DNA of 64,000 bases, taken from positions 64,019 through 128,018 of the forward strand of contig CAYNAR010000001.1 of the NCBI GenBank assembly GCA_964395625.1, in the 5' to 3' direction. The position numbers and the translations under genes were made by a program. Position 1 is the stretch's first letter. Each line of letters begins with the position of its first letter. Below are positions 39,989-63,164 of this stretch, in pieces. The notes beneath the pieces are model-generated. The model was given only the letters and a program-made list of their open reading frames with translations, was not told the origin of the DNA and did no database searches. This stretch comes from an uncultured Gammaproteobacteria bacterium. Lineage in GTDB: Bacteria; Patescibacteriota; Patescibacteriia; Patescibacteriales; WJLG01.

Positions 39989-40036
39989 CTAGGTATGAAC
40001 AAAAGGGCGTTTTAAAACGTCCTTTTTTATTTTTTT

Positions 40037-40067
40037 AAAGTCTTAATTCCAGACCTGCCCCCAAAAT
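40037..40067 (+). repeat. R1 repeat, right-end fragment (copy 0)
   Basis: AAAGTCTTAATTCCAGACCTGCCCCCAAAAT matches the right terminus of the full copy 47847-47877. Confidence 0.8.
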
Positions 40068-40104
40068 AAAAAAAGGGCCGAAATATTTTCGGCCCATAGG
40101 GAAT

Positions 40105-40997: not shown

Positions 40998-41151
40998 AAA
41001 AAGTGTCCTTAAAAAAGTGGCAGTAGTTCACTGATTGGTTTGGCGGTTATCTTCTTGATAGCCGTTTTTTTATTTTTTGTGAGGCACTAATTGTGAGAGT
41101 GTGTTTTCTTGAATAAAAAAGCCCTTCATTTTTTAAAATGAAGGGGTGATT

Positions 41152-41940: not shown

Positions 41941-42054
41941 TTAGCACCACCTTTTTGAAAGTTTGGTTTGGAAAAAATGTTAATCTCTAAAATAAATATT
42001 TGATTGTGAAAAAACGAAATCATATTATTATATTTAAAAAACGTCATTTTGTCA

Positions 42055-42290
42055 AAAAATAAGCCTCGCGATGGCTTGTTTTTGGTTTACACAATGGTTT
42101 GGGTTGTGTGGCGGTGATTTATATTATCCTGAAAAATAGGCGGTTTTTAGGGCATTTCAGGGCCTTAAAAACGCTTGCAAATTCTATTTTTTCGTGTTAT
42201 ATTATGGCTTAATCCAAAAATGGCAAATATTGCCAGTTTTTTCGTTTAAAACGCTAAAAGCAAAGACCCGCTCTTAAAGTGATCCAAAAA
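42055..42290 (+). repeat. R1 repeat copy 2 (starts at T1 hairpin; promoter and T2 present)
   Basis: AAGCCTCGCGATGGCTTGTTTTTGGTTT...TATTATCCTGAAAAATAGGCGG...CTTGCAAATTCTATTTTTTCGTGTTATATTATGGCTT...TGGCAAATATTGCCAGTTTTTT. Confidence 0.85.
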
Positions 42291-42331
42291 CCGTGTTCAT
42301 TAAAAAAACTTAAAATGAAAAGGAGTGAAAA

Positions 42332-42826
42332 ATGACAAGGTATTGCTTGGTGTTGTTGTCCATGTCCATAGCTTCCGTGATTTCCGGAATGCTTTACGTC
42401 CAATTTTTCGATTCGTTTAGAAGTAGGAAATTTTTGAAATTATTTCTATATTCAATCGGATTGACTGCTGTCGCCGGAATCTGTTTCACCTTGATGAATG
42501 ATTTTCAGCAAAAACTCGTTCCCATCGACTTTGTGAAAAGCGTAGCGTTCTATGGAGGGATGGTTATCGCTTTGCCGGTAGTTTTTTTCATCGTCTTTTC
42601 TTTGTTCCTTCATCCTTTCCTTGGTTGCAAGCCAGCTATTGGCAACAACCAATTGGCTTATGCCCTTTTATCATGCATAGCGTTTCTTCTTCCGTTGATT
42701 TTTGTAAAAGGAGTGATAATGACCGAGCCTCCAAGTTTCTTCGTTCTACTATTTGGGGTTTGTACTTGCTCCCCGGTCATAATTATCTTATTCGTTGCTA
42801 AAAATTTTAAAAAATCACTTGCTTAA
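42332..42826 (+). CDS. Polytopic membrane protein (about 5 TM), unknown function
   Basis: RBS AAGGAG; hydrophobic throughout. Confidence 0.6.
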   Translation: MTRYCLVLLSMSIASVISGMLYVQFFDSFRSRKFLKLFLYSIGLTAVAGICFTLMNDFQQKLVPIDFVKSVAFYGGMVIALPVVFFIVFSLFLHPFLGCKPAIGNNQLAYALLSCIAFLLPLIFVKGVIMTEPPSFFVLLFGVCTCSPVIIILFVAKNFKKSLA

Positions 42827-42986
42827 ATGGTCCATTTGCGAGGCCTCAAGAATATTTTCTTGAGGCTTTTAATTTAAACTTATAATTTGTATTGTCCTAT
42901 AAAATTATTTGAAAACGCTTACATGGATATGGCGATTCCGAAGATGAAGACCTTTTTGATGATGATTTTTAAGTTTATAATAAAAT

Positions 42987-43256
42987 ATGAATTTCAATAA
43001 ATTAGAAATTGGTAAGCCAATATTAAGTATCACGGGCAGAGCTAGTTATGGAATAATAGGAATAGGGAAGGATGATTCTTGTGTTTATTACAAAAGAATA
43101 AATACTGGATCAGAAGAAAAAATAGAGAAAACAAAACTGGAAGAAATCAAGAGAATGAAAGAGGCTGGGAAAAAGATCAATACAAAAACCATTAAAGAAA
43201 TCGTTCCAAGAAAGCAGTCGCCGGCATTGGCAATACTAAAGAAGCTTGAAGAGTAA
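42987..43256 (+). CDS. Small basic hypothetical protein
   Basis: 89-aa ORF; its last about 8 codons recur as a remnant at 45016-45048. Confidence 0.45.
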   Translation: MNFNKLEIGKPILSITGRASYGIIGIGKDDSCVYYKRINTGSEEKIEKTKLEEIKRMKEAGKKINTKTIKEIVPRKQSPALAILKKLEE

Positions 43257-43285
43257 TACAACAAAGCTTAACCCAAGGCCCGATA

Positions 43286-43418
43286 TTGTTTTAAAGTCTT
43301 TTTTATGCTAAGGTTAGATTTAATAATAAAACAGACAAGTTTGATCACATTCCGGAGGGACTAATGAGATGGACGATAAAGATTTGAACAAGGCAAGATG
43401 TGGCCTTGTTTTTGTTTT
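43286..43418 (+). promoter_or_regulatory. F2 module copy a: promoter TTGTTT-17-TGcTAAGGT, RBS plus 7-codon mini-ORF (43364-43387), terminator (43388-43418)
   Basis: GGAGGG-4nt-ATGAGATGGACGATAAAGATTTGA abuts stem ACAAGGC/GCCTTGT plus T run; 3' ~60 nt identical in copy b. Confidence 0.6.
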
Positions 43419-43436
43419 CTCGTTAATCTTTATAAA

Positions 43437-43895
43437 ATGAATATCATTATCACTAAACCTCAAGATGAGGAAATAGATATAGTTAAAGATGTTACCGAGA
43501 AAGCCTATAAAGAACCGTATCATGAAAACAGTCTAATCACCCAATTCAAGGAAGCCGATGATTTGAGAGAGAAATTCGTTAACGGTGAAATCGGCATAGT
43601 CGTTGCCCGTATTAATGATCAAATAGTTGGCTCGGTTAGATACAAGATAAAAGAAACCGGTGAATTGTATCTATTCAAATTAGCCGTCTTGAAAGAGTTT
43701 AGAAAAAATGGCATAGCTTCGAAGCTTCTATTGGCAATAGAAGAAGAGGCGAGAAGAATTAATATTTTAACAATAAAGCTGGATTGCGCTCAAGAAAAAT
43801 TCCTGCCGCCATTTTATGAAAGACACGGATATAAAATAGATGAAATCAGAGAACACGGCGATCATCATGATGTCTATATGTCGAAAGTCGTTTGA
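43437..43895 (+). CDS. GNAT-family N-acetyltransferase
   Basis: Start MNIIITK; LAVLKEFRKNGIASKLLLAIEEEA (motif A R/QxxGxA); YERHGYK. Confidence 0.8.
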   Translation: MNIIITKPQDEEIDIVKDVTEKAYKEPYHENSLITQFKEADDLREKFVNGEIGIVVARINDQIVGSVRYKIKETGELYLFKLAVLKEFRKNGIASKLLLAIEEEARRINILTIKLDCAQEKFLPPFYERHGYKIDEIREHGDHHDVYMSKVV

Positions 43896-43910
43896 TTATT
43901 TAAATTTTTT

Positions 43911-43985
43911 AGGTAGCCATGAAAACACCCCGCGGGGTGTTTTTTGTGCTTTTAAGGTTTGTTTTTGGTTTAGGGGCGGGCGACT
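43911..43985 (+). repeat. R1-related degenerate fragment (copy 3) with terminator module
   Basis: AGGTAG..GAAAACACCCCGCGGGGTGTTTTTT plus AAGGTTTGTTTTTGGTTTAGGGG. Confidence 0.6.
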
Positions 43986-44119
43986 AAAATAATATTTTAA
44001 AATGTAATTTTGTGATATTATTATTTTAGGAGGGAAACGTAGAAAAATTTTTTTGGCGCATAAAAAGCCGAAATCAACCACTATGCCCCTTTAGGTGGTG
44101 GTATTTTTTTAATTTTTTT

Positions 44120-44752
44120 ATGATTTATGCTTATATAGATGAATCTGGTAATCTTGGCTACAATGAAGGATATTTTATTATTGCCATGTTATCTTCCAAT
44201 AATCCGAAGCGACTAAAAAATATAATAAAATCATTTTGCGCCTATAAATCATTGTCAGAAGTTCATGCAACCGACCTATCTTTCCCTGATAAGCAATACT
44301 TGGTAAACAAACTAGTAAAGCAAAAGGATTACAGCATTTCCTATGTCATTGCCGACAAAATGATGATTGAAAATAAAAAATTATTTGATAATAACAACAT
44401 ACTTTTTAATTATCTTTTCTCTTTTTTAGTTAAAGATATTATTGCTGCCAATACGGGCGATATAGTTTTGCATTTAGATAATAGAACGCAAAAAGTAGCG
44501 TCAGCTAATTCGTTAAAGGATTATATACATATAAAAGCCTTTGCCGAGTGGGGGTTTGATAAAAATCTTGTGATAAGCTATATAGATTCAAAACATTCCA
44601 AGGCTGTGCAAATGGCCGATTTGGTAGCCAACTGCATACATCGCAAGTATCGTCATGGCGTAAGTGATTTTTATTCGCGCTTAAATATTGTGAAGTCCAT
44701 CAAATTTCCAAGTTTAAGTTTTAGAGAAAATTTATTTTTAAAAGATAGTTGA
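44120..44752 (+). CDS. DUF3800-family protein
   Basis: N-terminal MIYAYIDESGNLG; C-terminal Q.ADLVAN region. Confidence 0.7.
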   Translation: MIYAYIDESGNLGYNEGYFIIAMLSSNNPKRLKNIIKSFCAYKSLSEVHATDLSFPDKQYLVNKLVKQKDYSISYVIADKMMIENKKLFDNNNILFNYLFSFLVKDIIAANTGDIVLHLDNRTQKVASANSLKDYIHIKAFAEWGFDKNLVISYIDSKHSKAVQMADLVANCIHRKYRHGVSDFYSRLNIVKSIKFPSLSFRENLFLKDS

Positions 44753-44776
44753 CAAAAAGATATAAATTGATAGTAT
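44749..44776 (+). promoter_or_regulatory. Promoter TTGACA-16-TGaTAGTAT overlapping the DUF3800 stop codon
   Basis: Consensus -35; extended -10. Confidence 0.45.
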
Positions 44777-44782
44777 TATAAT

Positions 44783-44876
44783 ATACATAAATCCTATAGG
44801 GAGCTCTAAGGAGTAAGCGGCGTTTCCGCCGTCGAACTATAGGTAGTTGTGAAAACACCCTGAGGGGTGTTTTTTA
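44783..44876 (+). ncRNA. Candidate small RNA (about 90 nt) downstream of DUF3800
   Basis: Closing helix CCTATAG(44793-99)/CTATAGG(44837-43), inner hairpin CGGCG-TTTC-CGCCG, terminator ACACCC-TGAG-GGGTGT plus T5. Confidence 0.45.
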
Positions 44877-45012
44877 GTATAACCTAAGGCTTGTTTTTGG
44901 TTCCTAGAAGGATTTAGGCAGGGAGGGGGTATTTATATTATCCTGAAAAATAGGCGGTTTTCAGGCTATTTTGGGGCCTGCAAAACGCTTGTAGTTTCTA
45001 TTTTTCATCTAT
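44841..45012 (+). repeat. R1 repeat copy 4 (terminator module, T1 half, part B; promoter degenerate)
   Basis: AAGGCTTGTTTTTGGTTCCTAGAAGGATTT...TATTATCCTGAAAAATAGGCGGTTTTCAGGC...CTTGTAGTTTCTATTTTTCA. Confidence 0.8.
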
Positions 45013-45015
45013 TAC

Positions 45016-45077
45016 AAAAGGGCAATATTGAAGAAGCTTGAAGAGTAATACAACAAAGCTTAACCCAAGGCCCGATA
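45016..45077 (+). repeat. Duplicate of the 3' end and downstream flank of CDS 42987-43256
   Basis: GGCAATATTGAAGAAGCTTGAAGAGTAATACAACAAAGCTTAACCCAAGGCCCGATA vs 43227-43285, nearly identical. Confidence 0.8.
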
Positions 45078-45106
45078 TTGTTTTAAGGTCGTTTTTATGC
45101 TAAGGT
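45078..45106 (+). promoter_or_regulatory. F2 promoter copy c (TTGTTT-17-TGcTAAGGT), no mini-ORF or terminator
   Basis: Same promoter as 43286 and 46064; reads directly into CDS 45144. Confidence 0.55.
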
Positions 45107-45143
45107 TGGATTCAATACAACACCGAATTAAAATAAATAATTG

Positions 45144-46073
45144 ATGAAAAAAATTGAAAGAATAAAAGACATTCTAAGTAGAATTGATAATGATAGTTTG
45201 CTTAGAATCAAGCAGGAAATTAAGGATAAGGAATTACTATTGATATCTTTGGCGGAAAAAGGGGAGATAAGCGACAAAACTTGTGAAGACTCCGTCTTTG
45301 ATTATTTAAAATTGAGTAAAAATCCGCCCCGGCCAAAAAATTTAAACGAGCTCATGGTTCAATTTATCGGTAGTGCGTTCAGTTACAATAGAATAAGAAT
45401 ACAAATGCGCAAGATTCATAGAGAAAGATTTGGCAATCCCGATTTTCCGATAAAAAGCGAGCACAAAAAGATATTGTCATATATTTTTAACGATCAAAGA
45501 TTGAATGACGATTTTTTTTGGCACCCAGAAAGGTTGGGAATTCTAATGGATGAGATTGAGAGTAGGGGGGACTATAATAACCCGATGATTATAACACCGT
45601 ATTGGCTTGGGCGTATAATGTCTACCTTGCTGACAGCGCCGAAAAGAATAATGGAGATTACAGGTGGCGACATATCTGCTTTCTATAAAAAAATCGACGA
45701 AATGTGCAATGACGAATGCCAAGGCGACATCTTTGAAAAATCCAAAAGATTATGGAATTTTGCCAAAGAGATTAGTGTTGGAGTAAAGAATGTAGGCCCC
45801 AATCTGGTTTGTGATTTTTTGAAAGAATCCGGTTTTACAGCCTACGCCAAAATGGATGTCCACCTAATGAGGAGTATGGGGAATTTCTTACATAATTTTA
45901 AAGATGAGAAACTTGATGATTTTGAATCCTTTGTTACCGCGCAGTGGTTTGCCGATAAGATAGGAATGACGCCGTATAGATTTGATAAGATTTTGTTTGT
46001 CTGGGGTATTCAATATCCACAAAAAAATAAAAAAGCGAAGTGCAAGAAAGAAACCACCCAATGTTGTTTTTAA
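45144..46073 (+). CDS. Hypothetical protein with possible HhH-GPD (endonuclease III-like glycosylase) C-terminal motif
   Basis: GVKNVGPNLVCDFLKESGFTAYAKMDVHLMRSMG resembles GVGxKTAxxV...xxVDxHxxR. Confidence 0.35.
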   Translation: MKKIERIKDILSRIDNDSLLRIKQEIKDKELLLISLAEKGEISDKTCEDSVFDYLKLSKNPPRPKNLNELMVQFIGSAFSYNRIRIQMRKIHRERFGNPDFPIKSEHKKILSYIFNDQRLNDDFFWHPERLGILMDEIESRGDYNNPMIITPYWLGRIMSTLLTAPKRIMEITGGDISAFYKKIDEMCNDECQGDIFEKSKRLWNFAKEISVGVKNVGPNLVCDFLKESGFTAYAKMDVHLMRSMGNFLHNFKDEKLDDFESFVTAQWFADKIGMTPYRFDKILFVWGIQYPQKNKKAKCKKETTQCCF

Positions 46074-46198
46074 GCTGTTTTTGTGCTAAGGTTGGATTTA
46101 ACAAAGAAATAGACAAGTTTAATCACATTCTGAGGGGATTAATGAGATGGACGATAAAGATTTGAACAAGGCAAGATGTGGCCTTGTTTTTGTTTTTT
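46064..46198 (+). promoter_or_regulatory. F2 module copy b: promoter, mini-ORF (46142-46165), terminator (46166-46198)
   Basis: -35 overlaps the stop of CDS 45144-46073; mini-ORF MRWTIKI identical to copy a. Confidence 0.6.
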
Positions 46199-46203
46199 AG
46201 TAT

Positions 46204-46380
46204 ATGATAAAAAAGATTTGCACGGATGAAGATAAATTGAGGTGTCCTAATTGTGGTGGTGAATTATATTTTGCTGCAGAGTTTAAGAAAGAAGATGTAA
46301 TATATTACGAATGTCGCAGTTGTGAGAGCGGAAAAAATCAGTCCAAGGTAAGAGTAGTTGGGGGCTTAGTTTGTTGGTGA
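46204..46380 (+). CDS. Small zinc-ribbon protein (58 aa; below ORF-track cutoff)
   Basis: MIKKICTDEDKLRCPNCGGELYFAAEFKKEDVIYYECRSCESGKNQSKVRVVGGLVCW; CxxC...CxxC. Confidence 0.55.
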   Translation: MIKKICTDEDKLRCPNCGGELYFAAEFKKEDVIYYECRSCESGKNQSKVRVVGGLVCW

Positions 46381-46402
46381 ATTTTTAAAATAAAATTAAA
46401 AT

Positions 46403-47269
46403 ATGAAAATTATAGGCATATTAAAAAAAGGTGAAGAAGAAAAGAAAAATATTCTTTACAATCTTTTAAACTCTTACTATTTTGGCAAAATAGAAAGGTG
46501 GAAGAGGAAGGGCGTTTCAGAAGATGATGCTTTTGATAAATATTTAAACTTCTTTATTGCATTGAATATTGCTTATAATCTTTGGGCAAATATAGATAAT
46601 CCAAATTTTAATCCTATTGGAAGCGATGCATCTGCGTTTAAAAAAATAGGCTCCGATTTGTTGAATGATTTAGGTGATGGTGGCAATAGTTACTTGCAGG
46701 GGTTAATTAATATTCTTGATAGTAATCATCTTTTTTTAAATGTTGGCACACAAAATAAAAAAGAAGATATTAAAAATGTTTTCGCAAGAGCTCATGCTAG
46801 TAATGATGTTAAAAAAATAAAAGAAATTGCTTGGGAATCATTTTATTCTGCTAGATGCAATCTAGTACATGGTGTGAAAGGTTATGAAATTTTTCAGGCC
46901 GTGCTTCTTGGATTTATGAACGATGAGCTCTTGAAGCATATAGAAGAAATTATTAAACAGTTAAAAATTTTAAGTGATTTATTAACTATTAATCTGAAAA
47001 TTAAAAAAGATTGTGAGTTTGATAGTGTGGGCGGTGGTGGTAGGTATAAAATTATTAGCAATGACGATGTTGTTGTGAAAATAAAGAGATTGAATGCGGT
47101 TTACGCAGAAAGAGAGTATCCTGTTAAGATGAGTGAGCTTTTGGAAATATTAACAAATTTTTATGGAAAAAGAGGAGAGATAAATACAAGCACCATCGAT
47201 CTGTATGTTTCTGGAAGAGAGTCACTGGCTATGGCAATTTTAAAGCATTGTGAAATTGTAGAAAATTAA
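46403..47269 (+). CDS. Hypothetical protein with RX4H (HEPN-like) motif
   Basis: ESFYSARCNLVHGVKG contains R-x4-H followed by G; N-terminal all-helical pattern. Confidence 0.35.
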   Translation: MKIIGILKKGEEEKKNILYNLLNSYYFGKIERWKRKGVSEDDAFDKYLNFFIALNIAYNLWANIDNPNFNPIGSDASAFKKIGSDLLNDLGDGGNSYLQGLINILDSNHLFLNVGTQNKKEDIKNVFARAHASNDVKKIKEIAWESFYSARCNLVHGVKGYEIFQAVLLGFMNDELLKHIEEIIKQLKILSDLLTINLKIKKDCEFDSVGGGGRYKIISNDDVVVKIKRLNAVYAEREYPVKMSELLEILTNFYGKRGEINTSTIDLYVSGRESLAMAILKHCEIVEN

Positions 47270-47306
47270 TAGTAATTTTTAAAATAATTAGTTTAAAACT
47301 ATATTT

Positions 47307-47534
47307 ATGCAAGAGATAAAAATTGAGGACAAACAAAAATATCTTAATGAACACTATCTTTTTGCGCCTGTTCCTAAGATTGAAGAGAAAATGGTATGTG
47401 CTCATTGTGATTCCGTTTTTACAGTTGGTGATTATAGAGTGTATAAAGATGAAACTGGTTTCGAGGCTATTTGTTGTCCTAATGCACCAGAATGCAAGGG
47501 AACAATTATAGATTGGGTGTCAAAAGAAGAATAA
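47307..47534 (+). CDS. Small zinc-ribbon-like protein
   Basis: CAHC...CCPNAPEC Cys pairs; 75 aa. Confidence 0.5.
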   Translation: MQEIKIEDKQKYLNEHYLFAPVPKIEEKMVCAHCDSVFTVGDYRVYKDETGFEAICCPNAPECKGTIIDWVSKEE

Positions 47535-47650
47535 ATTTTGGGTCAAGTCTTGAATCGTGAATTTTAAAAATATTTTCCAGCACTCTGTCTGCTGGCAAAA
47601 GATCTGGCCAACCCTCCTTGACCTATTTAATGCCAGTGGACAGAATTCTG

Positions 47651-47683
47651 CCCAAAACAAGCCCCTCAAAGGCTTGTTTTGGG
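47651..47683 (+). terminator. R1 internal hairpin T1 (13-bp perfect stem)
   Basis: CCCAAAACAAGCC-CCTCAAA-GGCTTGTTTTGGG. Confidence 0.6.
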
Positions 47684-47771
47684 TTTTGGAGGGGTGAAAC
47701 AGGCTGTCATTGTGTATTTTGTCGCTCAGAAAAAGAGGGGGTTACGAGACTGTTTTAAGCCCCAAAAACAC

Positions 47772-47800
47772 TTGCAAATTATATTTTTTCGTGGTATATT
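47772..47800 (+). promoter_or_regulatory. R1 internal promoter TTGCAA-17-TGgTATATT
   Basis: Conserved in 6 R1 copies (42.2, 47.8, 48.96, 50.7, 52.0 and 54.4 kb). Confidence 0.6.
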
Positions 47801-47812
47801 ATGGCTTAAATT

Positions 47813-47839
47813 AAAAATGGCAAATATTGCCAGTTTTTT
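47813..47839. terminator. R1 internal hairpin T2 (bidirectional terminator)
   Basis: AAAAA-TGGCAA-ATA-TTGCCA-G-TTTTTT. Confidence 0.65.
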
Positions 47840-47923
47840 GTTTAAAAAAGTCTTAATTCCAGACCTGACCCCAAAATTAATTTAAACTTGTAATTTGCAT
47901 ATAGATAATATATGTATAATAGC

Positions 47924-47951
47924 TTGACATACGGATTATTAATGGTATAAT
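47924..47951 (+). promoter_or_regulatory. Promoter TTGACA-16-TGgTATAAT
   Basis: Consensus hexamers plus extended -10 upstream of the NYN leader. Confidence 0.65.
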
Positions 47952-47957
47952 TAATTT

Positions 47958-48019
47958 ATACATCTTCTGTCGCTTCGGTGGCAGAATGCGGGGTTGCAGA
48001 AATGCAACCCTTGCTTTTT
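47958..48019 (+). ncRNA. Structured leader/short RNA ending in a terminator 12 nt before the NYN start codon
   Basis: Hairpin TTCTGTCGC-TTCG-GTGGCAGAA (47965-86); GGGTTGCA-GAAA-TGCAACCC plus TTGCTTTTT (47991-48019). Confidence 0.5.
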
Positions 48020-48030
48020 AAATACGATAT

Positions 48031-48723
48031 ATGCGAGCATGCGTTTATGTTGACGGCTTCAATCTTTTTTACGGAAGCTTGAAAGGGGGTAAATATAAAT
48101 GGCTTGATATCGATAAACTTGTAAAGAATTATTTTCCTTCGTACTCAATAGAAAAAATAAAATATTTTTCCGCTCCGACTAAGGCGCGAAAAAACGATCT
48201 TAATAAACCTGTCCGGCAACAGATGTATTTTAGGGCATTAAGAACAAACCCGAACACAGAAATAATCCTCGGATCGTTTTTGGAAAATGAGGTTTGTTTT
48301 TTTGTTCCATCAAAAACTAAAAATGGCACACAGCAAAAAGCAAAAGTTTCTGTGTTAAAGAACGAAATGAGCTTGCCTTTGGTTGATCCGAATTATTTGA
48401 TAGTCAAAAAAACGGAGGAAAAAGGGTCAGACGTAAATTTAGGAGCTCATTTGGTTATGGATGCGTATGAAAAAAGATTTGACGTAGCTATTGTTGTTTC
48501 CAATGATTCAGATTTAGTTGAGCCAATTAGAATAGTTAACAATATGAACAATCTAAGAGTCAGGTTGTTAAATCCCTACCCTACAACACAAGAAAAGTTA
48601 AAGAAGGTCACGGCGAACACTGGAATAAAATACATAAGACAAAGCGTGCTACAAATTTCTCAATTCCCAGAGAACATGAAAGATATTGTTGGTTGTTTTC
48701 ATATACCGCAAAATTGGAAGTAA
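48031..48723 (+). CDS. NYN (LabA/DUF88-like) domain protein, putative RNase
   Basis: ACVYVDGFNLFYG; EKGSDVNLGAHLVMDA; DVAIVVSNDSDLVEPI. Confidence 0.75.
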   Translation: MRACVYVDGFNLFYGSLKGGKYKWLDIDKLVKNYFPSYSIEKIKYFSAPTKARKNDLNKPVRQQMYFRALRTNPNTEIILGSFLENEVCFFVPSKTKNGTQQKAKVSVLKNEMSLPLVDPNYLIVKKTEEKGSDVNLGAHLVMDAYEKRFDVAIVVSNDSDLVEPIRIVNNMNNLRVRLLNPYPTTQEKLKKVTANTGIKYIRQSVLQISQFPENMKDIVGCFHIPQNWK

Positions 48724-48753
48724 AGAGTAATATGAAATAATGGGTCTTTGTAG

Positions 48754-48990
48754 AAACAAGCCTCTTGGGGTTTGTTTTTGGTTTCTAGAGGGACACAAAG
48801 CATGTCACCCCGAGCGTAGCCGAGGGATCATAATAATTCTTACTCCTTATTATCCTGAAAAATAGGCGGTCTTAAGGCTGTTTTGGGGCTCTAGTTGTTA
48901 TTGCGAGGCCGGTATTTCCGGCCGTGGCAATCCAGTATTAAAATCACCTAAAAACACTTGCAAATTATATTTTTTCGTGGTATATTATGA
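48754..48990 (+). repeat. R1 repeat copy 6 (T1, part B with two small insertions, promoter; T2 and right end absent)
   Basis: AAACAAGCCTCTTGGGGTTTGTTTTTGGTTTCTAGAGGG ... TATTATCCTGAAAAATAGGCGG ... CTTGCAAATTATATTTTTTCGTGGTATATT. Confidence 0.85.
48958..48986 (+). promoter_or_regulatory. R1 promoter copy driving the methyltransferase-rSAM-peptide operon
   Basis: TTGCAA-17-TGgTATATT; no T2 hairpin before ATG 49051. Confidence 0.6.
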
Positions 48991-49050
48991 CTTCCTCAAA
49001 ATCGTTATAAAATAAAATTTATTTTTTGATAGTATGTTAATGCGAGACTT

Positions 49051-49521
49051 ATGAATAATTTTTTAGAAGAATTTATAAAGGAAAAATATGGATCAAACGT
49101 TGGCTCGGCTTTGGATTTTGGCGCCGGTAAAGGTGTTGATGTTCGCGAGCTACAAAAAATAGGCTGGGATGTCAAAGGCCTTGATCTTCCCAGTAATGAT
49201 CTTAACTTTCCTTATAAGACCGATAAACAAGTTGATTTTATTTATTCCATAGCAGTAATCCAGTTTATCAAAGATAAGGAAGTTTTTGTTAGAAATATTA
49301 TCGACAATCTTAAGGATGATGGTTGGTTTTTTATTTTAACCTTTTCTAAGAATGATGTTTTCTTTGGTGAGAAAGGCGGTATGTCAAAAGAAGATTTAGA
49401 AGGTCTTTTTAAAGAATTTAAAAATGTAAAAACCGAAAACAAAGATTTTTTCGATAATGACATAGGGCATAATCATTGGCATAAATTACTTATAGTAACA
49501 GGACAAAAAAGGGGGGAGTGA
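49051..49521 (+). CDS. Class I SAM-dependent methyltransferase
   Basis: ALDFGAGKGVDVRELQKIGWDVKGLDL; DFIYSIAVIQFI; LKDDGWFFILTF. Confidence 0.7.
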   Translation: MNNFLEEFIKEKYGSNVGSALDFGAGKGVDVRELQKIGWDVKGLDLPSNDLNFPYKTDKQVDFIYSIAVIQFIKDKEVFVRNIIDNLKDDGWFFILTFSKNDVFFGEKGGMSKEDLEGLFKEFKNVKTENKDFFDNDIGHNHWHKLLIVTGQKRGE

Positions 49522-50270
49522 TGAGTAGATTTTATTTGCAAATGCACATTACAAATAAGTGTAATAATCGATGCTCGCATTGTTATCAGTCTGACTATGG
49601 CGGAGAAGATATGAGTGTCGATTCGGCAAAGTTGATTTTTAAAGAGCTTTCTTCGATTTGTAAAAAAGTTTCAGTAAGGTCGGAAGTTTCAATTACTGGA
49701 GGTAGTCCCGTATTGGCGGATGGTTTTATTGAAATAGTCGAGACAGCCAGGGAGCTTTGCGATGTCGTAAGGATTCTTGGCAATCCAGAAGGATTGAGTG
49801 ATGAAATAGTTTTGTTTTTAAAAAAGGTCGGAGTGGATGGTTTTCAACTGTCCCTTGATGGCTCAAGACAGACCCACGATTCTTTAAGAAGTAGCGGTAG
49901 TTTTGACAGGACTATAAGTGCTATGAAGAAGCTATCGTCGGAAGGAATTTTAGTTTTTGTTAATTCTACTTTATCTGATAATAATCGCCACGAAATAAGT
50001 CTTATTAATGAAATCGCAGAAGCTAATGGCGCCAGTCATGTTTCTTTTGAAGAGTATGTTCCGTATGGTTTGGATTGTTCCGGAAAATGTAATTGTAGTT
50101 TGGGCTCCGCCACAATGGCCATTTTGCCGGATCTTACAATTATGGCTTGTCGAAGGACTCCGTCTAGTATTCTTGGAAAATGGACCAAGGAGCGTGGATT
50201 ATTTTATCATTTAGCCAAAAATGAAAAAATGATAGAGTATAGGAGAAGGAAGGCGTTGAAAAATGCATAA
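49518..50270 (+). CDS. Radical SAM enzyme with short C-terminal Cys-rich (twitch/partial SPASM-like) region
   Basis: Overlaps upstream stop (GTGATG); CNNRCSHC = CX3CX2C; ITGGSPVL; LSLDG; C-terminal CSGKCNCSLGSATMAILPDLTIMAC. Confidence 0.8.
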   Translation: MMSRFYLQMHITNKCNNRCSHCYQSDYGGEDMSVDSAKLIFKELSSICKKVSVRSEVSITGGSPVLADGFIEIVETARELCDVVRILGNPEGLSDEIVLFLKKVGVDGFQLSLDGSRQTHDSLRSSGSFDRTISAMKKLSSEGILVFVNSTLSDNNRHEISLINEIAEANGASHVSFEEYVPYGLDCSGKCNCSLGSATMAILPDLTIMACRRTPSSILGKWTKERGLFYHLAKNEKMIEYRRRKALKNA

Positions 50271-50306
50271 TATAATCAACCTTAAAAAAGAAAGGAGTAA
50301 GTGCCC

Positions 50307-50414
50307 ATGTCACAAGAGCTTGAACTTCAAAACTTGAAGCTGGCTGGCGTTTTTGATGAAGCTTGTACGCTTTGTATCAATGTCGGCACCGGTGGCGGAT
50401 CGGATAATGATTAA
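50307..50414 (+). CDS. Candidate RiPP precursor peptide (35 aa), not in ORF track
   Basis: RBS AGGAG; MSQELELQNLKLAGVFDEACTLCINVGTGGGSDND; 36 nt after the rSAM stop; terminator follows. Confidence 0.6.
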   Translation: MSQELELQNLKLAGVFDEACTLCINVGTGGGSDND

Positions 50415-50430
50415 TTATCATATCCTCCTG

Positions 50431-50459
50431 GACTACAACGTTCGTTGTAGTCCTTTTTA
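50431..50459 (+). terminator. Intrinsic terminator of RiPP operon 1
   Basis: GGACTACAAC-GTTC-GTTGTAGTCC plus T5. Confidence 0.85.
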
Positions 50460-50530
50460 TTTAGTGATTTAAAATATGGTTGTTGTGAGTAAGACAAAAC
50501 AGTGTTGAGACGGAATCGCTAAAAGTAAAG

Positions 50531-50801
50531 TTCTGATTCCAAAATGCCAAAAATAAGCCTCCTGTGAGCTGCACCCCGTTTAGTAGACACGAATAAAATA
50601 CTAGCGGTTCTCTAAAAGGGTTTAGAAGGGGTCTGGCAATTTGTATTATCCTGAAAAGTAGGCGGTTTTCAGGCCATTTTGTGGCCTTGAAAGCGCTTGC
50701 AAATTCTATTTTTTCGTGGTATATTATGGCTTAAATTAAAAATGGCAAATATTGCCAGTTTTTTGTTTAAAACCTTATAGCTAAAGACCTGGCCCCAAAA
50801 T
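50531..50801 (+). repeat. R1 repeat copy 7 (degenerate left part; part B, promoter, T2, right end)
   Basis: TATTATCCTGAAAAGTAGGCGGTTTTCAGGCC...CTTGCAAATTCTATTTTTTCGTGGTATATTATGGCTTAAATTAAAAATGGCAAATATTGCCAG...AGACCTGGCCCCAAAAT. Confidence 0.85.
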
Positions 50802-50825
50802 TTGAAAACACCCTGAGCAAACTAA

Positions 50826-50850
50826 AAACCAACCCGTTAAGGTTGGTTTT
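50826..50850. terminator. Bidirectional hairpin after the minus-strand HEPN pair
   Basis: AAACCAACC-CGTTAA-GGTTGGTTT. Confidence 0.65.
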
Positions 50851-50861
50851 TGACTAACTAA

Positions 50862-51218
50862 CTATTCAGTATCTTTGGATTTTATTATATTAGCATAATG
50901 CACCGTATTTCCGTTTACCTTTTCATTTTCTATAATCGATCCCGACTTAAATTGCATTAATTCTTGAATAAGGTGTTCGGTCTCGGGGTAAATAGCTATT
51001 CTGGCTATTTCACTAACTTCTTCAGGACTTAATGAGTCAATAATATTTTTGCGAATAATATTGAACACTTCTTCTCTGTTTTCATCATTTGCCCAGGGAG
51101 CACAAAAAACAATCGTCCATTTATCAACGAATTCATCCATTTTGAGTAAAGCAAAAATCGTAACTTCGCTTTTTTCCTCCTCAATTTTTTCTATTATTTC
51201 TTTAAATTTTTCTAACAT
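50862..51218 (-). CDS. Hypothetical acidic protein, downstream partner of the HEPN gene
   Basis: Overlaps the HEPN ORF by 7 nt; no nucleotidyltransferase motif seen. Confidence 0.55.
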   Translation of the reverse strand: MLEKFKEIIEKIEEEKSEVTIFALLKMDEFVDKWTIVFCAPWANDENREEVFNIIRKNIIDSLSPEEVSEIARIAIYPETEHLIQELMQFKSGSIIENEKVNGNTVHYANIIKSKDTE

Positions 51219-51667
51219 ATAATATTTTTCTCTATAAGTGGGATTATTCCATCTGGCTTTTTCGTGAGAAAAGTATATAAATTTTTTGTAATTTTTTCAT
51301 CGAACTGAGTAAGCGTATCATACCTAATGTCAGTCCATCTTCCTATTTTTGAGTATTCTTGTGTGAAACCCGACCAACTACTAGCGCCTTCTCCGGACAG
51401 CTCAAATATTTCAGAAGCGCCGGAAATAGGGAGCAACAAATCAAAATCATGTGTCAAAAAATAACTAGTTATCTTTGGATTTTTAGTTTTTTTTATTTCT
51501 GGATAATTTTTTAAATTAAGCACTTTGCATGCCGATGCCTTCAATATGCATTCTAACACAAACCCCATTAGATATACAGCAACGCCCCATTCCTGATTGG
51601 ATATTAAAATATCGACCGTTTTAAGGCGATTTTTAGCTAAGGTAAGAAAATCATTGCAATTAGCCAT
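51212..51667 (-). CDS. HEPN-domain protein
   Basis: FLTLAKNRLKTVDILISNQEWGVAVYLMGFVLECILKA; THDFDLLL; C-terminal IRYD, matching classical HEPN helix layout. Confidence 0.55.
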   Translation of the reverse strand: MANCNDFLTLAKNRLKTVDILISNQEWGVAVYLMGFVLECILKASACKVLNLKNYPEIKKTKNPKITSYFLTHDFDLLLPISGASEIFELSGEGASSWSGFTQEYSKIGRWTDIRYDTLTQFDEKITKNLYTFLTKKPDGIIPLIEKNIIC

Positions 51668-51792
51668 AATAATTTTAAAATAGCATAAAAATATTATTAA
51701 GGCAAGTTTGCAGAAGTGACCATAAAAACAGATCTTTAACGATATTTACTTGGAAATATTTGTTTTTTTATGTTACGCTAAAGCTTAATATG

Positions 51793-52026
51793 AAAATATT
51801 TTCCAGTATTCTGTCCGCCGGCAAAGAGCTGGCCGACCCTCCTCGGCCTGCTTGATGCCAGTGGACAGAATTCTGCCAAAAACAGGCCTCGCAAGGGCTT
51901 GTTTTTGGTTTCTGGAAGGATTTAATCGTGGTTGTGGTGTTTGTATTATCCTGAAAAATAGGCGGTTTTAAGGCTATTTTGGGGTCTTGAAAGCACTTGC
52001 AATTTCTATTTTTTCGTGGTATAAAA
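51793..52026 (+). repeat. R1 repeat copy 8 (part A, T1, part B, promoter; T2 and right end absent)
   Basis: AAAATATTTTCCAGTATTCTGTCCGCCGGCAAAGAGCTGGCCGACCCTCCTCGGCC...CTTGCAATTTCTATTTTTTCGTGGTATAAA. Confidence 0.85.
51997..52025 (+). promoter_or_regulatory. R1 promoter copy (TTGCAA-17-TGgTATAAA) driving the rSAM-peptide-HExxH operon
   Basis: No T2 hairpin; RBS AGGAGG and GTG 52077 lie 50 nt downstream. Confidence 0.6.
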
Positions 52027-52076
52027 AATAGAAATGTTTTTTGATAGAGCACTTTAAATTTTTACAGGAGGTTTTT

Positions 52077-53384
52077 GTGATTTACAGAAGTTTAACAGCT
52101 CCAATATCTTGCCAAATTGAATTGACAACGGCTTGTCAGCTTAAGTGTGTTCATTGTTATAATCACTGGAGATGCTTAAGTTGCGACAACGATTTGTTTA
52201 TGACCGAAAAAGAGGCGGAGTTTGTCGCTAATCAGATTATTGATGCAAAGGTATTTCAGGTGACTCTAACCGGTGGAGAACCTTTGCTTAACCGCAAGGC
52301 ATTATTTCGTATTCTTGATTTACTGAAAGATGAAAGAATTGAAATCGGGTTAAATTCTAACTTGATTAGTCTGAGTGAGAAGGATGTTGATATTCTGCAT
52401 GCTGGAAATGTTAAATCCGTTTTAACTTCGTTTGCTTCATCTAGCGAAAGTGTGAATGATAGTATAATGAAGCTTGACGGGGCGCAAAAAAGAATAATCA
52501 AAGGGATCGAGTTGGTTGTGGAAACTGGTTTTAGTGTTGGTTGTAGCATGGTTGTCACCAAAATGAATCTTGATGATGTTGTTGAGACCGGATTATTCCT
52601 TCAGAGTCTTGGTGTGACTAATTTTTACGCCACAAAGGGTTCCCCACCGCTAAACTCCAAAGGTTTTGATAACTTTATGCTTTCCGGCGATGAATTGTTG
52701 AAGGTGATGGATGATTTGAGCTTATTAAAGGAAAGACACGGCCTTGAAGTTGGGATTTTGGAATGTTACCCGGTTTGTTTTTATTGTTTCCAGGAAAAAT
52801 ACCCTTTTACTGTCGGTAAGCGTTGTAGTGCTGGGTCGACGGCTTGTGCTATTGGTTCTGCTGGTGACGTTAGGGCTTGTACTCATTCAGACGTTATTTA
52901 CGGTAATATCTTTAAAGGAGGTTTAAAGGAAGCGTGGGGTGAAATGAGGGACTGGAGAGATGGGGCTAGGATTTCCTCGACTTGTAGAACGTGTGTTTAT
53001 TTTCCTGAATGTAGCGGTGGATGTAGAGTTGATGCTGAATTTTGCGGTGGTGCTAAGGATTCCATGGATCCTTATGCTGATAAAAATCAGATAGCAAGTG
53101 TCAGCTTGCTTAAAAAAGATGTATTGGTTGAATTTTCCGAAGAACAAAGATTTTTTGTAAAAAAAATAAAATTTAGAAAAGAGATTGACTCTGTTTTATG
53201 CGCAAGCCTTGATCGCGTGCATAGTCCGGTTTTGTTGACGGTGGATATGTTTGATTTTCTTGTTGAAATGAGTGAAAAGACCTTTACATTGTCGGAAATG
53301 TCAAGTATAATCAACTTGGATATTAATTCTTGTAAGGAATTGTGTTCATGTCTTTTTAAGGATGGATTGCTAAGTGTTCTTTAA
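52077..53384 (+). CDS. Radical SAM/SPASM-domain peptide maturase with C-terminal PqqD/RRE-like extension
   Basis: GTG 52077 with RBS AGGAGG (track TTG 52041 unlikely); CQLKCVHC; TGGEPLL; CSAGSTACAIGSAGDVRAC; CRTCVYFPECSGGC...C (CX2CX5CX3C). Confidence 0.85.
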   Translation: MIYRSLTAPISCQIELTTACQLKCVHCYNHWRCLSCDNDLFMTEKEAEFVANQIIDAKVFQVTLTGGEPLLNRKALFRILDLLKDERIEIGLNSNLISLSEKDVDILHAGNVKSVLTSFASSSESVNDSIMKLDGAQKRIIKGIELVVETGFSVGCSMVVTKMNLDDVVETGLFLQSLGVTNFYATKGSPPLNSKGFDNFMLSGDELLKVMDDLSLLKERHGLEVGILECYPVCFYCFQEKYPFTVGKRCSAGSTACAIGSAGDVRACTHSDVIYGNIFKGGLKEAWGEMRDWRDGARISSTCRTCVYFPECSGGCRVDAEFCGGAKDSMDPYADKNQIASVSLLKKDVLVEFSEEQRFFVKKIKFRKEIDSVLCASLDRVHSPVLLTVDMFDFLVEMSEKTFTLSEMSSIINLDINSCKELCSCLFKDGLLSVL

Positions 53385-53403
53385 AAAGAAAGGAGGTAAT
53401 TGC

Positions 53404-53544
53404 ATGAAAGAGAAGAAGAGCTTCGGATACGTTTCTTTGTTGCTCGATACATCTGTCGAGAATAAAAAAGACGATTCTAAAGCAGCTGTTTCGATGTCTT
53501 GTTACTGCAATTGTAATAGTTGCAATTGTTATGTGACAAAGTAA
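53404..53544 (+). CDS. Candidate Cys-rich RiPP precursor peptide (46 aa), not in ORF track
   Basis: RBS GGAGG; MKEKKSFGYVSLLLDTSVENKKDDSKAAVSMSCYCNCNSCNCYVTK; starts 19 nt after the rSAM stop. Confidence 0.7.
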   Translation: MKEKKSFGYVSLLLDTSVENKKDDSKAAVSMSCYCNCNSCNCYVTK

Positions 53545-53559
53545 AGTTTCTTGTTTTAT

Positions 53560-53578
53560 GGGCATCAATTTGATGCCC
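53560..53578 (+). other. Perfect stem-loop between precursor ORF and HExxH gene
   Basis: GGGCATCA-ATT-TGATGCCC; no clean T run. Confidence 0.6.
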
Positions 53579-53588
53579 TATTATATTT

Positions 53589-54299
53589 ATGCTAAAAAAG
53601 ATAGGTTTAAAATTTGTTTCAAATAAAAATAACGATGTGGAGGAATTTTTTCGTCTCTGGCATGGGCACGAAAATCTTAGAGTTGGCTTAATGGATTTTG
53701 TAAATAACAATTCGAACAATATCATACACCCCGATATTGCCCCGTCGAAAGATATTTTGGCTTTGGCTGTGAAAAGTAGATACGAGATGGATGAGAAAAA
53801 GATCGTTAAAACGTTATTTTTTGCGGAGAACAAATGGTGCGAAATAGAACCGTTATTTTATGATTTAGTCGGCAAGATATTTAAGAAGGATTTTTCCTTT
53901 GATAAAATAATAAAGGTCTATGTTTCAGTGCTTCCGTTTTTTGTAAGAAATTTGGATGAAGGGCGTGTCTCTATTCCGTATAACACAAGCAATGAAAACG
54001 AGCCAGTTTTTGTTTTAGCTCATGAGCTCTTGCATGTTATTTTCTATTCTTACATTCATGATAATTATGAAGAATTAAGAGAAAGTCTTTCTAGTAAGAA
54101 GGTTTGGGATTTTTCTGAAGCTATAAACGTCGTTATACAGGGGCAGGTTGAGTGGGTGAATATTTTTAAAATAGAGCCCAGCTTTTATCCCGAGCACGAA
54201 GCGTTGTACTTAGCACTGAATAAAAAGTGGGAAAAAGATAAAGACATAGATTCTTTGATAAGGGATTTTTTGGTTAATGTGGCAGAACGGCAAAATTAA
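53589..54299 (+). CDS. Putative HExxH zinc metallopeptidase
   Basis: VFVLAHELLHVIFYSY; same operon as rSAM and precursor. Confidence 0.5.
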   Translation: MLKKIGLKFVSNKNNDVEEFFRLWHGHENLRVGLMDFVNNNSNNIIHPDIAPSKDILALAVKSRYEMDEKKIVKTLFFAENKWCEIEPLFYDLVGKIFKKDFSFDKIIKVYVSVLPFFVRNLDEGRVSIPYNTSNENEPVFVLAHELLHVIFYSYIHDNYEELRESLSSKKVWDFSEAINVVIQGQVEWVNIFKIEPSFYPEHEALYLALNKKWEKDKDIDSLIRDFLVNVAERQN

Positions 54300-54518
54300 A
54301 AACAAGCCTTTTGGGGCTTGTTTTTGGTTTCTGGAAGGATTTAATCGTGGTTGCGGTGTTTGTTTGTCCTGAAAAATAGGTGGTTTTAAGGCCATTTTGG
54401 GGTCTTGAAAACACTTGCAATTTCTATTTTTTTGTGTTATATTATGGCTTAATCTAAAAATGGCAAATATTGCCAGTTTTTTGTTTAAAAAGTCTTAATC
54501 ACAAATCCGACCTCAAAA
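54297..54518 (+). repeat. R1 repeat copy 9 (T1, part B, promoter, T2, degenerate right end)
   Basis: AAACAAGCCTTTTGGGGCTTGTTTTTGGTTTCTGGAAGGATTTAATCGTGG...CTTGCAATTTCTATTTTTTTGTGTTATATTATGGCTT...TGGCAAATATTGCCAG. Confidence 0.85.
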
Positions 54519-54528
54519 CAAAGTATTT

Positions 54529-62449: not shown

Positions 62450-62477
62450 TTGACATTTTTTATCATCGTGTTATAAT
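62450..62477 (+). promoter_or_regulatory. Promoter TTGACA-16-TGtTATAAT
   Basis: Consensus hexamers plus extended -10; upstream gene is divergent. Confidence 0.65.
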
Positions 62478-62483: not shown

Positions 62484-62590
62484 ATTGAATCAATCAATTG
62501 ATTGGCAGATTATTGAAGAAAGGCTGAAAAATCCATTGTTTTACTAAATCCCCACCCCATTCCCGCAAGGGAGTGCGGTGGGTTTTTTTT
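62484..62590 (+). ncRNA. Structured leader/short RNA ending in a strong terminator 10 nt before the NYN start
   Basis: Palindrome CAATCAATTGATTG; 14-bp stem CCCACCCCATTCCC-GCAA-GGGAGTGCGGTGGG plus T8 (62551-62590). Confidence 0.5.
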
Positions 62591-62600: not shown

Positions 62601-63164
62601 ATGTCTAAAAAAACAAAAAGAGTGGCTATTTTTATTGATGGAAGTAATTTGTATTATAAATTAAAAGATTTGAAGGTTAAAAATAAAACCAAATTTGATT
62701 ATTTTGGTTTTTGTGGCTTATTGGCTGTTGATAGAGAAATAGTTTTTTGTAAGTACTATGTTGGAGAGGTTAGAGCAAAGAAGGGTGATGAAAAATCTCG
62801 TATAATGTTGTCTATGCAACAAAAGCTATTTAGTCATCTTGTTAAACAAGGAATTGTTGTAGAAAGAGGGTATTTAATGGAAAATGATGGCAAGTTTCAT
62901 GAAAAAGGTGTTGATGTGAAAATAGCGACGGATATAATAATAGGCGCTTATGAAAATATTTATGATGTGGCGATTATAATTTCCTCTGACACGGATTTGA
63001 TCCCTGCCATTAAACAAGCACGAAAGTTAAATAAAACTATTGAGCACATCGGATTTTCTCATGCCCCAACATTTGGCCTGCAAAAACACTCTGATTTTAC
63101 TAGGTTGTTTATTTATAATGACTTGAAAGAGTTCATAGAAGAAGACGATATTGAAGTAAAATAA
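62601..63164 (+). CDS. NYN (LabA/DUF88-like) domain protein, second copy
   Basis: VAIFIDGSNLYYKL; EKGVDVKIATDIIIGA; DVAIIISSDTDLIPAIK. Confidence 0.75.
   Translation: MSKKTKRVAIFIDGSNLYYKLKDLKVKNKTKFDYFGFCGLLAVDREIVFCKYYVGEVRAKKGDEKSRIMLSMQQKLFSHLVKQGIVVERGYLMENDGKFHEKGVDVKIATDIIIGAYENIYDVAIIISSDTDLIPAIKQARKLNKTIEHIGFSHAPTFGLQKHSDFTRLFIYNDLKEFIEEDDIEVK

Follow-up and report, generated by a model that had tools for sequence, protein, structure and literature searches.

A short structured RNA encoded just upstream of a nuclease gene in the genome of an uncultured bacterium is, judged by the covariation of its helices and by its genomic linkage, a conserved small RNA gene that partners NYN nuclease genes across many phyla. 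The locus lies in a stretch of 64,000 nucleotides (nt) of contig CAYNAR010000001.1 (GenBank assembly GCA_964395625.1, positions 64,019 to 128,018 of the forward strand), the whole of which is termed the window below, with positions counted from its first letter; the nuclease, a LabA/MARF1-type NYN protein of 230 amino acids (aa) belonging to the HEC-09 family, is encoded at 48031..48723 (+). On balance, we favor the reading that the two genes constitute an RNA–protein module that works in the way of a toxin–antitoxin (TA) system of type III, in which the RNA would restrain the NYN nuclease. The protein family was already known as a candidate (HEC-09), and what is new here is the RNA partner, its structure and the near-universal linkage of the two; in the literature we found no description of an NYN protein with a small RNA, a non-coding RNA (ncRNA), an RNA motif or a type III TA system.

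The small RNA gene, its conservation and its placement

The RNA gene of the window opens with an extended sigma-70 promoter at 47924..47951 (+) that agrees with the consensus at 12/12 positions: TTGACA at 47924-47929, a spacer of 16 nt, TG at 47943-47944 and TATAAT at 47946-47951. Transcription is predicted to start at ~47958, and the NYN-associated small RNA of ~60 nt (47957..48019, +) comprises a single-stranded 5′ AUACAUC, hairpin 1, hairpin 2 and a U-run. Hairpin 1 (47965..47986, +) has a stem of 9 base pairs (bp), including 2 G.U pairs, capped by a UUCG loop. Hairpin 2 forms the intrinsic terminator (47988..48019, +): its 11-bp stem at 47988-48014, with one bulged U and a GAAA loop, is directly followed by UUUUU at 48015-48019, which ends 12 nt before the ATG at 48031, and a consensus scan ranked the site 47990-48011 among the strongest terminator-like sites of the window. 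The letters before this ATG are AAAUACGAUAU, and there is no Shine-Dalgarno sequence in them, while other genes of the same genome do have one (on the minus strand, AAGGUGGUG before 41940 and AGGA before 40429); the start codon is backed by the N-termini of 32 homologs that begin at the same residue. Each element that a preliminary description of this DNA had read from the letters, namely the TTGACA-16-TGgTATAAT promoter, the UUCG-capped 9-bp hairpin, the GAAA-loop hairpin with its T tract and the missing Shine-Dalgarno sequence, is thus present where it was claimed. The same description had noted that tandem RNA repeats are lacking, and Tandem Repeats Finder (TRF) likewise detects none in either of the two NYN leaders of the window.

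The architecture stands out from the rest of the window. Perfect TTGACA-N15-18-TATAAT promoters occur at 4 sites in the 64 kb, as against 0.03 expected, and two of these are the ones ahead of the two NYN genes. The remaining two, at 40475-40503 (-) and 42027-42055 (-), precede ordinary Shine-Dalgarno-led genes (ATG 40429 and ATG 41940) with no terminator between promoter and gene, which makes the insertion of a terminator specific to the NYN genes in the window. The leader of the first NYN gene folds with an energy of -31.5 kcal/mol (z = -3.85), none of 200 shuffles being as good. Two other roles considered for this leader were rejected: an 11-codon open reading frame (ORF) from 47986, which might have encoded a leader peptide, is not conserved and lacks its ATG in relatives; and pairing of the C-rich 5′ arm with G-rich Shine-Dalgarno sequences is impossible in the window sequence and not conserved either.

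A metagenome scan with the window protein alone gave 3 loci, and close relatives were fetched one by one; a first covariance model, R1, was built from 7 sequences, relatives of the window locus at 64-79% protein identity from other metagenomes. Hairpin 1 is identical among all these close relatives, and hairpin 2 displays compensatory changes in 6/11 of its pairs, with 100% of the cells paired. R1 matched the motif beside most of 80 distant homologs (37-48% protein identity), from lineages that include Chloroflexota, Acidobacteriota, Proteobacteria, Gemmatimonadota, Actinomycetota, Verrucomicrobiota, Leptospirales, Patescibacteria and others. Over the 60 best hits (58 distinct sequences), compensatory changes are seen in 18/20 pairs and 97.8% of the cells are paired, as opposed to ~42% when the partner column is slid; resolved by helix, 9/9 pairs covary in hairpin 1 and 9/11 pairs show compensatory changes in hairpin 2.

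The model rebuilt after R1, R2, was searched over 90 sources amounting to 592 kb; the small RNA of the window scores 89.3 bits with R1 and 70.8 bits with R2. A survey of the leaders of NYN homologs had been suggested in the preliminary description as a check: R2 places the RNA next to the NYN gene in 87/90 sources from more than 10 phyla, and together with the strong covariation this bears out the proposal that the leader forms an RNA unit of its own, closed by a terminator. The three misses have explanations, since L082 carries a sequence variant with the same layout, the contig of L050 ends 23 nt after the gene and the gene of L078 is truncated at the N-terminus. Beyond these hits, the 592 kb contain a single one with E < 1, a weak match in L095 that resembles a terminator. 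This element (1818-1865 of that source) is a near-duplicate of hairpin 2 with its U-run (GGUCGCC-GUAU-GGCGGCCUCUGCUUUU), located ~55 nt upstream of the true RNA, and is the terminator of the preceding gene. The consensus of the RNA can be written as yAUAUCCCCCCUGUCGC-UUCG-GUGGCAGGGy-GCGAGGCCGCC-(loop 3-16 nt)-GGCGGCCUCUGCU-UUUU; its near-invariant positions are C9, the UUCG loop, which is conserved at 91-100%, and the GC/GC base of hairpin 2. As G.U pairs are frequent, the fold exists on the transcribed strand only. Searches of Rfam 15 with both window leaders, a consensus-like homolog and 20 homologous loci recovered no relevant match, either at the gathering threshold or at E <= 10.

The homologous loci also speak to how the RNA is transcribed. 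A near-consensus sigma-70 promoter precedes the RNA motif in nearly every one of them, with an exact TTGACA in 42 of the 88 RNA hits, including some in genomes of ~70% G+C. The end of the -10 box most often lies 5 nt before position 1 of the model, which indicates that the motif starts at the 5′ end of the transcript, and a T-run follows hairpin 2 in 72/88 hits; with its own promoter and this T-run, the product would be a terminated RNA of ~60-70 nt. In its commonest placement, seen in 62/88 copies, the RNA lies upstream of the NYN gene in the same sense, the median distance to the start codon being 16.5 nt. It is upstream and divergent in 13/88 copies, all from Acidobacteriota (L009, L013, L016, L018, L031, L032, L039, L042, L045, L057, L059, L061 and L066), downstream and convergent in 8/88, mostly from actinobacterial lineages (such as Solirubrobacterales and Acidimicrobiales; L064 is an example), and downstream in tandem in a single copy (1/88, L081), while L080 has two RNA copies, one on each side of the NYN gene. 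The divergent, convergent and downstream placements (22/88) imply that the RNA is not purely a cis-acting leader and that the tie between RNA and protein operates in trans. Hence, the RNA is, as its placements and promoters indicate, an independent partner gene and not a leader alone. An all-against-all BLAST of the flanking ORFs disclosed no conserved second protein, the largest cluster of neighbors being present in 4/82 loci; thus, the module consists of the RNA and the NYN gene alone.

For the arrangement in the window, expression of the NYN gene by read-through only, as the preliminary description had proposed, is plausible from the layout: with a median gap of 16.5 nt between RNA and start codon, a conventional promoter would not fit behind the terminator. 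As a minor caveat, a weak TTGCAG-N18-TTAAAT after the terminator in the window could give a leaderless NYN mRNA; this putative internal promoter is confined to the window and not conserved in the family. Coupling by read-through is not universal, since in about a quarter of the loci the RNA is on the other strand or downstream. In the divergent acidobacterial loci, the gap from the 5′ end of the RNA to the NYN start is 54-95 nt (32 nt in L031 by an automated start call) and is mostly taken up by the RNA's own promoter; we saw no good plus-strand promoter for NYN there, and transcription of NYN may begin within the RNA gene, which would make its mRNA partly antisense to the RNA.

NYN proteins, plasmid relatives and the second NYN gene

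The only Pfam match of the first NYN protein of the window is PF01936 (NYN; 36.8 bits against a cut-off of 24.2) and its only PADLOC match is the hidden Markov model (HMM) of HEC-09 (E 2.9e-36, 123 bits). Its AlphaFold2 model (pLDDT 92.7) retrieves with Foldseek the LabA-like structure 2qip (E 4.5e-7) and MARF1 NYN domains (E 2e-4), the NYN structures that its fold matches being 2qip, 5yaa and 6fdl. Residues D8, D134, D159 and D161 are invariant in 33 aligned sequences and point to a conserved acidic metal-binding site. What sets the subfamily of this protein apart is a beta-hairpin region inserted into it and, at the C-terminus, the conserved extension QFP...D..G.F.KP..W. The two NYN proteins of the window share only 37% identity over the core. 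A bacterial CRISPR-associated NYN protein from Bacteroides fragilis is a Mn-dependent, sequence-nonspecific single-stranded RNA (ssRNA) nuclease that acts in the maturation of CRISPR RNA (crRNA) (bioRxiv 10.1101/2024.04.08.588522); ssRNA cleavage of this kind would be toxic if unrestrained. By analogy to this enzyme, and given the NYN fold and the invariant acidic residues, the window protein is a plausible toxin.

The protein family is large, with 4,696 clusters at E <= 1e-3, and is found on 448 plasmids of PLSDB, many of only 3.4-6.9 kb; its carriage by phages is rare (3 weak records). One such homolog, H66 (34% identity), is gene 6 of the Mycobacterium abscessus prophage prophiGD43A-1 (Mycobacterium phage, 3279-3896) and sits near the genome end; mycobacteriophages often carry defense genes in a region like this. 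The RNA–NYN pair is lodged between HmaA and HmaB in L023 and L076, has HmaB downstream in L001, adjoins type II/III methylases in L043 and L065, and adjoins a MADS component in L040. The window NYN gene is embedded neither in Hma nor in another defense system, its neighbors being DUF3800, a methyltransferase, a radical SAM protein and cassettes of unknown function. Such contexts, namely the 448 plasmids, the embedding in Hma, the methylase neighbors and the variable cassette array, are typical of toxin–antitoxin and defense genes. Some homologs, among them those of the plasmid records H39 (Pseudomonas syringae UMAF0158) and H41 (Klebsiella OW849292.1), bear the label "6-hydroxy-3-succinoylpyridine 3-monooxygenase HspA/nicB", in all likelihood a wrong annotation that has been propagated.

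Certain plasmid relatives bear an RNA with tandem repeats. A 33-nt unit, CCUGUGGCGUGCCGCAGGCGAAGAAACAACCCU, is repeated 3.8 times in tandem ahead of the NYN gene of the Klebsiella plasmid NZ_AP022149.1 (4.5 kb), and each copy has one hairpin, CCUGUGG-CGUG-CCGCAGG, that resembles hairpin 1 in its CCUGU.../...GCAGG stem with the same U.G wobble; behind the array lies the strong terminator AAAAAAACCGCAGAUGCGGUUUUUUUU, and after it come a Shine-Dalgarno sequence and the start codon. This array leader is shared by 17 plasmids, all of them mobilizable and, apart from one of 9.3 kb, ~4.6 kb long; E. coli is the host of 15, while Klebsiella and Salmonella account for 1 each. The last array unit plus terminator aligns to R2 with 21 bits. 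The two-hairpin RNA of the R2 type is itself present on the E. coli plasmid pKMi006_5 and on a Leptospira plasmid. Of two further natural plasmids, CP057030.1 is of the tandem-repeat type and NZ_CP091696.1 of the two-hairpin type. More distant plasmid subfamilies of NYN (~30% identity) are accompanied by different structured RNAs with a terminator abutting the start codon. Among these, a leader motif, GCGAUUAAGUU, is shared by L109 and L110 (E. coli pSE11-4 and a 5.2-kb Klebsiella plasmid), L111, L112 and L115, the hosts of the hairpin including Klebsiella IncR, Pseudomonas and Xanthomonas plasmids; on pSE11-4 it is present as two imperfect repeats of ~55 nt. The leader closes with a strong terminator that immediately precedes the start codon. 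From its sequence, this leader is probably a second NYN-associated RNA family.

The second NYN gene of the window (62601..63164, +; 187 aa; Pfam NYN, 71.6 bits) shows a comparable plan. Its promoter (62450..62477, +) again agrees with the consensus at 12/12 positions, with TTGACA at 62450, a 16-nt spacer and TGt-TATAAT at 62469-62477. It is followed by a leader or small RNA (62484..62590, +; ~105 nt) that consists of a variable 5′ part and a conserved 3′ part; the latter is made up of CUAAAUC and then a hairpin at 62551-62582 with 14+14-nt arms (13 bp), a C.C mismatch and a GCAA loop, with a T8 (U8) at 62583-62590 directly 3′ of it. A weak GGGGA is located upstream of the ATG at 62601. The family of this second protein is widespread in Patescibacteria, that is, the candidate phyla radiation (CPR), its homologs being named Patescibacteria, Falkowbacteria and Moranbacteria. 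Those with 56-63% identity retain the promoter, the variable 5′ part, the motif CUAA(A/C)ACCACCC and the long hairpin with its conserved C.C mismatch and a U.G wobble, the U-run lying 8-25 nt before the start codon; over 5 sequences, 4/13 hairpin pairs show compensatory changes and 98% of the cells are paired. We rejected the notion that this leader belongs to the same RNA family, as R2 gives no match to it and the shared UGUC/GGCA stem and U.G wobble are too weak for homology; it is instead a different RNA built to the same plan. The claim in the preliminary description that the design recurs at the second NYN gene with an unrelated leader therefore holds, the second RNA being likewise conserved and distinct from the R2 family. 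The type III-like layout that it perceived at these genes is reinforced by the plasmid relatives from E. coli, Klebsiella and Salmonella, which possess the tandem repeats missing in the window.

A type III-like interpretation and its alternatives

We propose that a strong constitutive promoter would drive a ~60-nt RNA comprising hairpin 1 and then hairpin 2, the latter doubling as the intrinsic terminator. In the window arrangement, most transcripts would stop at this terminator and a minority would read through and carry the NYN coding sequence; this stop, along with the lack of a Shine-Dalgarno sequence for NYN, points to a large excess of RNA over protein. The RNA would act in trans by binding the NYN protein via hairpin 1, the proposed protein-recognition unit, and the conserved base of hairpin 2, and would thereby keep its RNase activity restrained in the manner of a type III antitoxin. 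If the RNA supply were to fall, for instance upon phage-induced shut-off of host transcription or upon loss of the plasmid or island, NYN would be set free to cleave RNA of the cell or of the phage. The design recurs, with a different cognate RNA, at the second NYN gene of the window.

As of 2025, the type III TA systems comprise toxIN, cptIN and tenpIN, plus AvcID and AbiF (PMC12283969). The criteria for such loci that this article quotes from Blower et al. 2012 include a terminator before the toxin, tandem repeats and a single upstream promoter. With respect to the items so quoted, the window has a Rho-independent terminator directly before the putative toxin gene (47988-48014 plus U5, 12 nt before the ATG) and a perfect promoter at 47924-47951 that could serve both RNA and toxin, in addition to the weak TTGCAG-N18-TTAAAT 3′ of the terminator; the tandem direct repeats expected between promoter and terminator are present on the 17 plasmids and absent from the window. 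The plasmid array loci, going by their sequences, agree with the published type III locus criteria as quoted there (PMC12283969). As the window locus is devoid of repeats and its protein falls outside the three toxin families ToxN, CptN and TenpN, we do not file it as a member of type III; it most likely works like one.

The resemblance to ToxIN, CptIN and TenpIN lies in the order of the parts, with an endoribonuclease gene placed after a single promoter, a non-coding RNA and a Rho-independent terminator, and in the occurrence on plasmids and in defense loci; to ToxIN in particular, the E. coli and Klebsiella plasmid relatives add a ToxI-like tandem array (3.8 x 33 nt). The NYN systems differ from these in that the fold of the putative toxin is NYN (PIN-like and metal-dependent) rather than ToxN-like, in that most NYN loci, including that of the window, have a single two-hairpin RNA free of repeats, and in that the orientation of the RNA gene can be unlinked from that of its partner (divergent or convergent). 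AvcID- and AbiF-type systems (PMC12283969) similarly couple a small RNA to an adjacent effector gene, with the RNA proposed to restrain the effector and activation following the loss of RNA supply, but both their effectors (a cytidine deaminase and an Abi_2/HEPN protein) and their RNAs are unrelated to those described here. LabA/MARF1-type NYN proteins, including the CRISPR-associated one of B. fragilis, share the fold and the acidic active-site residues, and the B. fragilis enzyme is, moreover, a Mn-dependent ssRNA nuclease acting on a structured RNA precursor (bioRxiv 10.1101/2024.04.08.588522); unlike the window protein, they have no dedicated adjacent small RNA gene and lack the beta-hairpin insert and C-terminal extension of its subfamily. 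HEC-09 was reported as an NYN/MARF1-like candidate defense gene that lies within Hma (helicase-methylase-ATPase) systems (Payne et al., bioRxiv 10.1101/2024.01.29.577857). The window protein matches its HMM and some homologs lie between HmaA and HmaB as described; however, HEC-09 was presented as a single NYN gene with no mention of an ncRNA, whereas a conserved small RNA gene is the second component here, and the window copy belongs to a cassette array of a Patescibacteria-like genome rather than to Hma.

Several observations weigh against the type III-like interpretation. HEC-09 cloned with its native upstream region gave no protection against any coliphage tested (bioRxiv 10.1101/2024.01.29.577857). 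The absence of tandem repeats from the window and of its protein from the ToxN, CptN and TenpN families, the sole Pfam and PADLOC matches being NYN and HEC-09, has to be counted here too. Among the close relatives, 4 are without a U-run and 1 has a strong Shine-Dalgarno sequence, so that a terminator-based device for setting the ratio of RNA to protein is not universal. In the few CPR loci of homologs of the second gene that were examined, the neighbors are ordinary (L33, HU and a pseudouridine synthase), and for this second gene the role of a housekeeping RNase whose leader serves autoregulation is no less fitting than that of a toxin.

A rival reading would make the RNA a cis-acting autoregulatory leader, the 5′ structure being a site that NYN binds or cleaves to control termination, stability or translation of its own mRNA, with no toxin–antitoxin relationship involved. 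RNase III, RNase E and Regnase-1 control their own messages in this fashion, and the 62/88 RNA copies that directly precede the gene on the same strand at the median of 16.5 nt from its start codon, the ordinary genes around the examined CPR-type loci of the second NYN gene and the relatives without a U-run, in which the RNA would stay on the mRNA, are all as such a leader would have it. We nonetheless hold it to be rather unlikely, because the 22/88 RNA genes that are divergent, convergent or downstream, with a promoter and terminator of their own, cannot belong to the NYN mRNA and because a 3.8-copy tandem array is unexpected for a simple operator. The linkage and covariation evidence, on its part, accords equally with the RNA being a required cofactor, substrate or specificity element of NYN, such as a scaffold or activator that would be processed and would direct the nuclease in a ribonucleoprotein-like complex, and not an inhibitor. 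The role of the CRISPR-associated NYN in crRNA maturation offers a precedent, and the lack of a defense phenotype of HEC-09 alone is in keeping with it. Yet the RNA has no evident variable guide segment, the only variable part being the hairpin 2 loop of 3-16 nt, and the layout of excess RNA and terminator-limited protein, along with the tandem repeats, is a hallmark of antitoxin RNAs; we regard such a role as unlikely.

It is also conceivable that the element has no specific function, being a 5′ stabilizer with an insulating terminator or else a DNA-level site, such as one for the recombination of cassettes, and promoter and terminator repeats do abound in the cassette array that holds the window locus. 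This appears very improbable: sequence and structure are kept together with NYN across phyla at 37-79% protein identity, the UUCG loop and helix bases are nearly invariant, the fold is strand-specific owing to its G.U pairs, a promoter of its own accompanies the RNA whatever the arrangement, and the motif is not among the intergenic repeats of the window. A palindrome or recombination site acting at the DNA level, in particular, is disfavored by the strand-specific G.U pairs and the association with a promoter.

The interpretation of the RNA as a restraint on a toxic NYN nuclease can be extended to the family at large, and to this broader proposal we would assign an about even chance: HEC-09-type NYN proteins and their hairpin RNAs may form a large unrecognized RNA-antitoxin family, of TA or abortive infection type, with a toxin fold new to the class and an antitoxin ranging from a single ~60-nt RNA to tandem arrays, found in over 10 phyla, CPR bacteria among them, and on enterobacterial plasmids in their hundreds; the order "promoter, cognate structured RNA, terminator, NYN gene" would then be a general rule for several NYN subfamilies. 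If true, an NYN-based family of 4,696 protein clusters and 448 plasmids would greatly widen the type III class. The overlooked RNA component is a possible reason for the inactivity of HEC-09 as a single-gene candidate and bears on how such genes are cloned and tested. The RNA, being structured, covarying and phylogenetically broad, is a candidate for RNA databases, and the natural ~4.6-kb E. coli plasmids with the module offer a tractable model for the restraint of a PIN-like/NYN RNase by RNA. The module is also present in Patescibacteria, in which mobile defense and addiction modules are almost unstudied.

The cassette array around the window locus

The region 40000-55000 of the window is a cassette-like array in which a composite intergenic repeat of 250-330 nt separates cassettes of one or two genes; its copies are at ~40730-41000, 42055-42280, 44840-45005, 47542-47875, 48751-49001, 50596-50800, 51793-52040 and 54297-54518. 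The cassettes encode DUF3800, GNAT, a methyltransferase with a radical SAM protein, a radical SAM/SPASM protein, NYN and proteins of unknown function, and glycosyltransferase genes flank the array. It looks like an integron-style variable region, with repeats unlike attC sites and no integrase seen. In a neighboring cassette lies a DUF3800 gene (44120-44752); Rfam holds several DUF3800-associated RNA motifs, none of which was detected in the window at the gathering threshold. Located 3′ of the first NYN gene is a terminator-like hairpin, AAACAAGCC-N6-GGUUUGUUU followed by Us (48754..48779, +), which was recognized by reading of the sequence and as repeat family D8 and is part of the intergenic repeat that bounds the NYN cassette. 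The intergenic repeat further holds a promoter-like TTGCAA-17-TATATT with an extended TG and, ~25 nt on, the hairpin UGGCAAAUAUUGCCA with a U-run. The combination is found at 47763-47840, 50688-50765, 54406-54483 and 42166-42243, and in a form without the hairpin at 48949-49001 and 51988-52040; it represents a further unit of the form "promoter, very short RNA, terminator", present in 4-6 copies.

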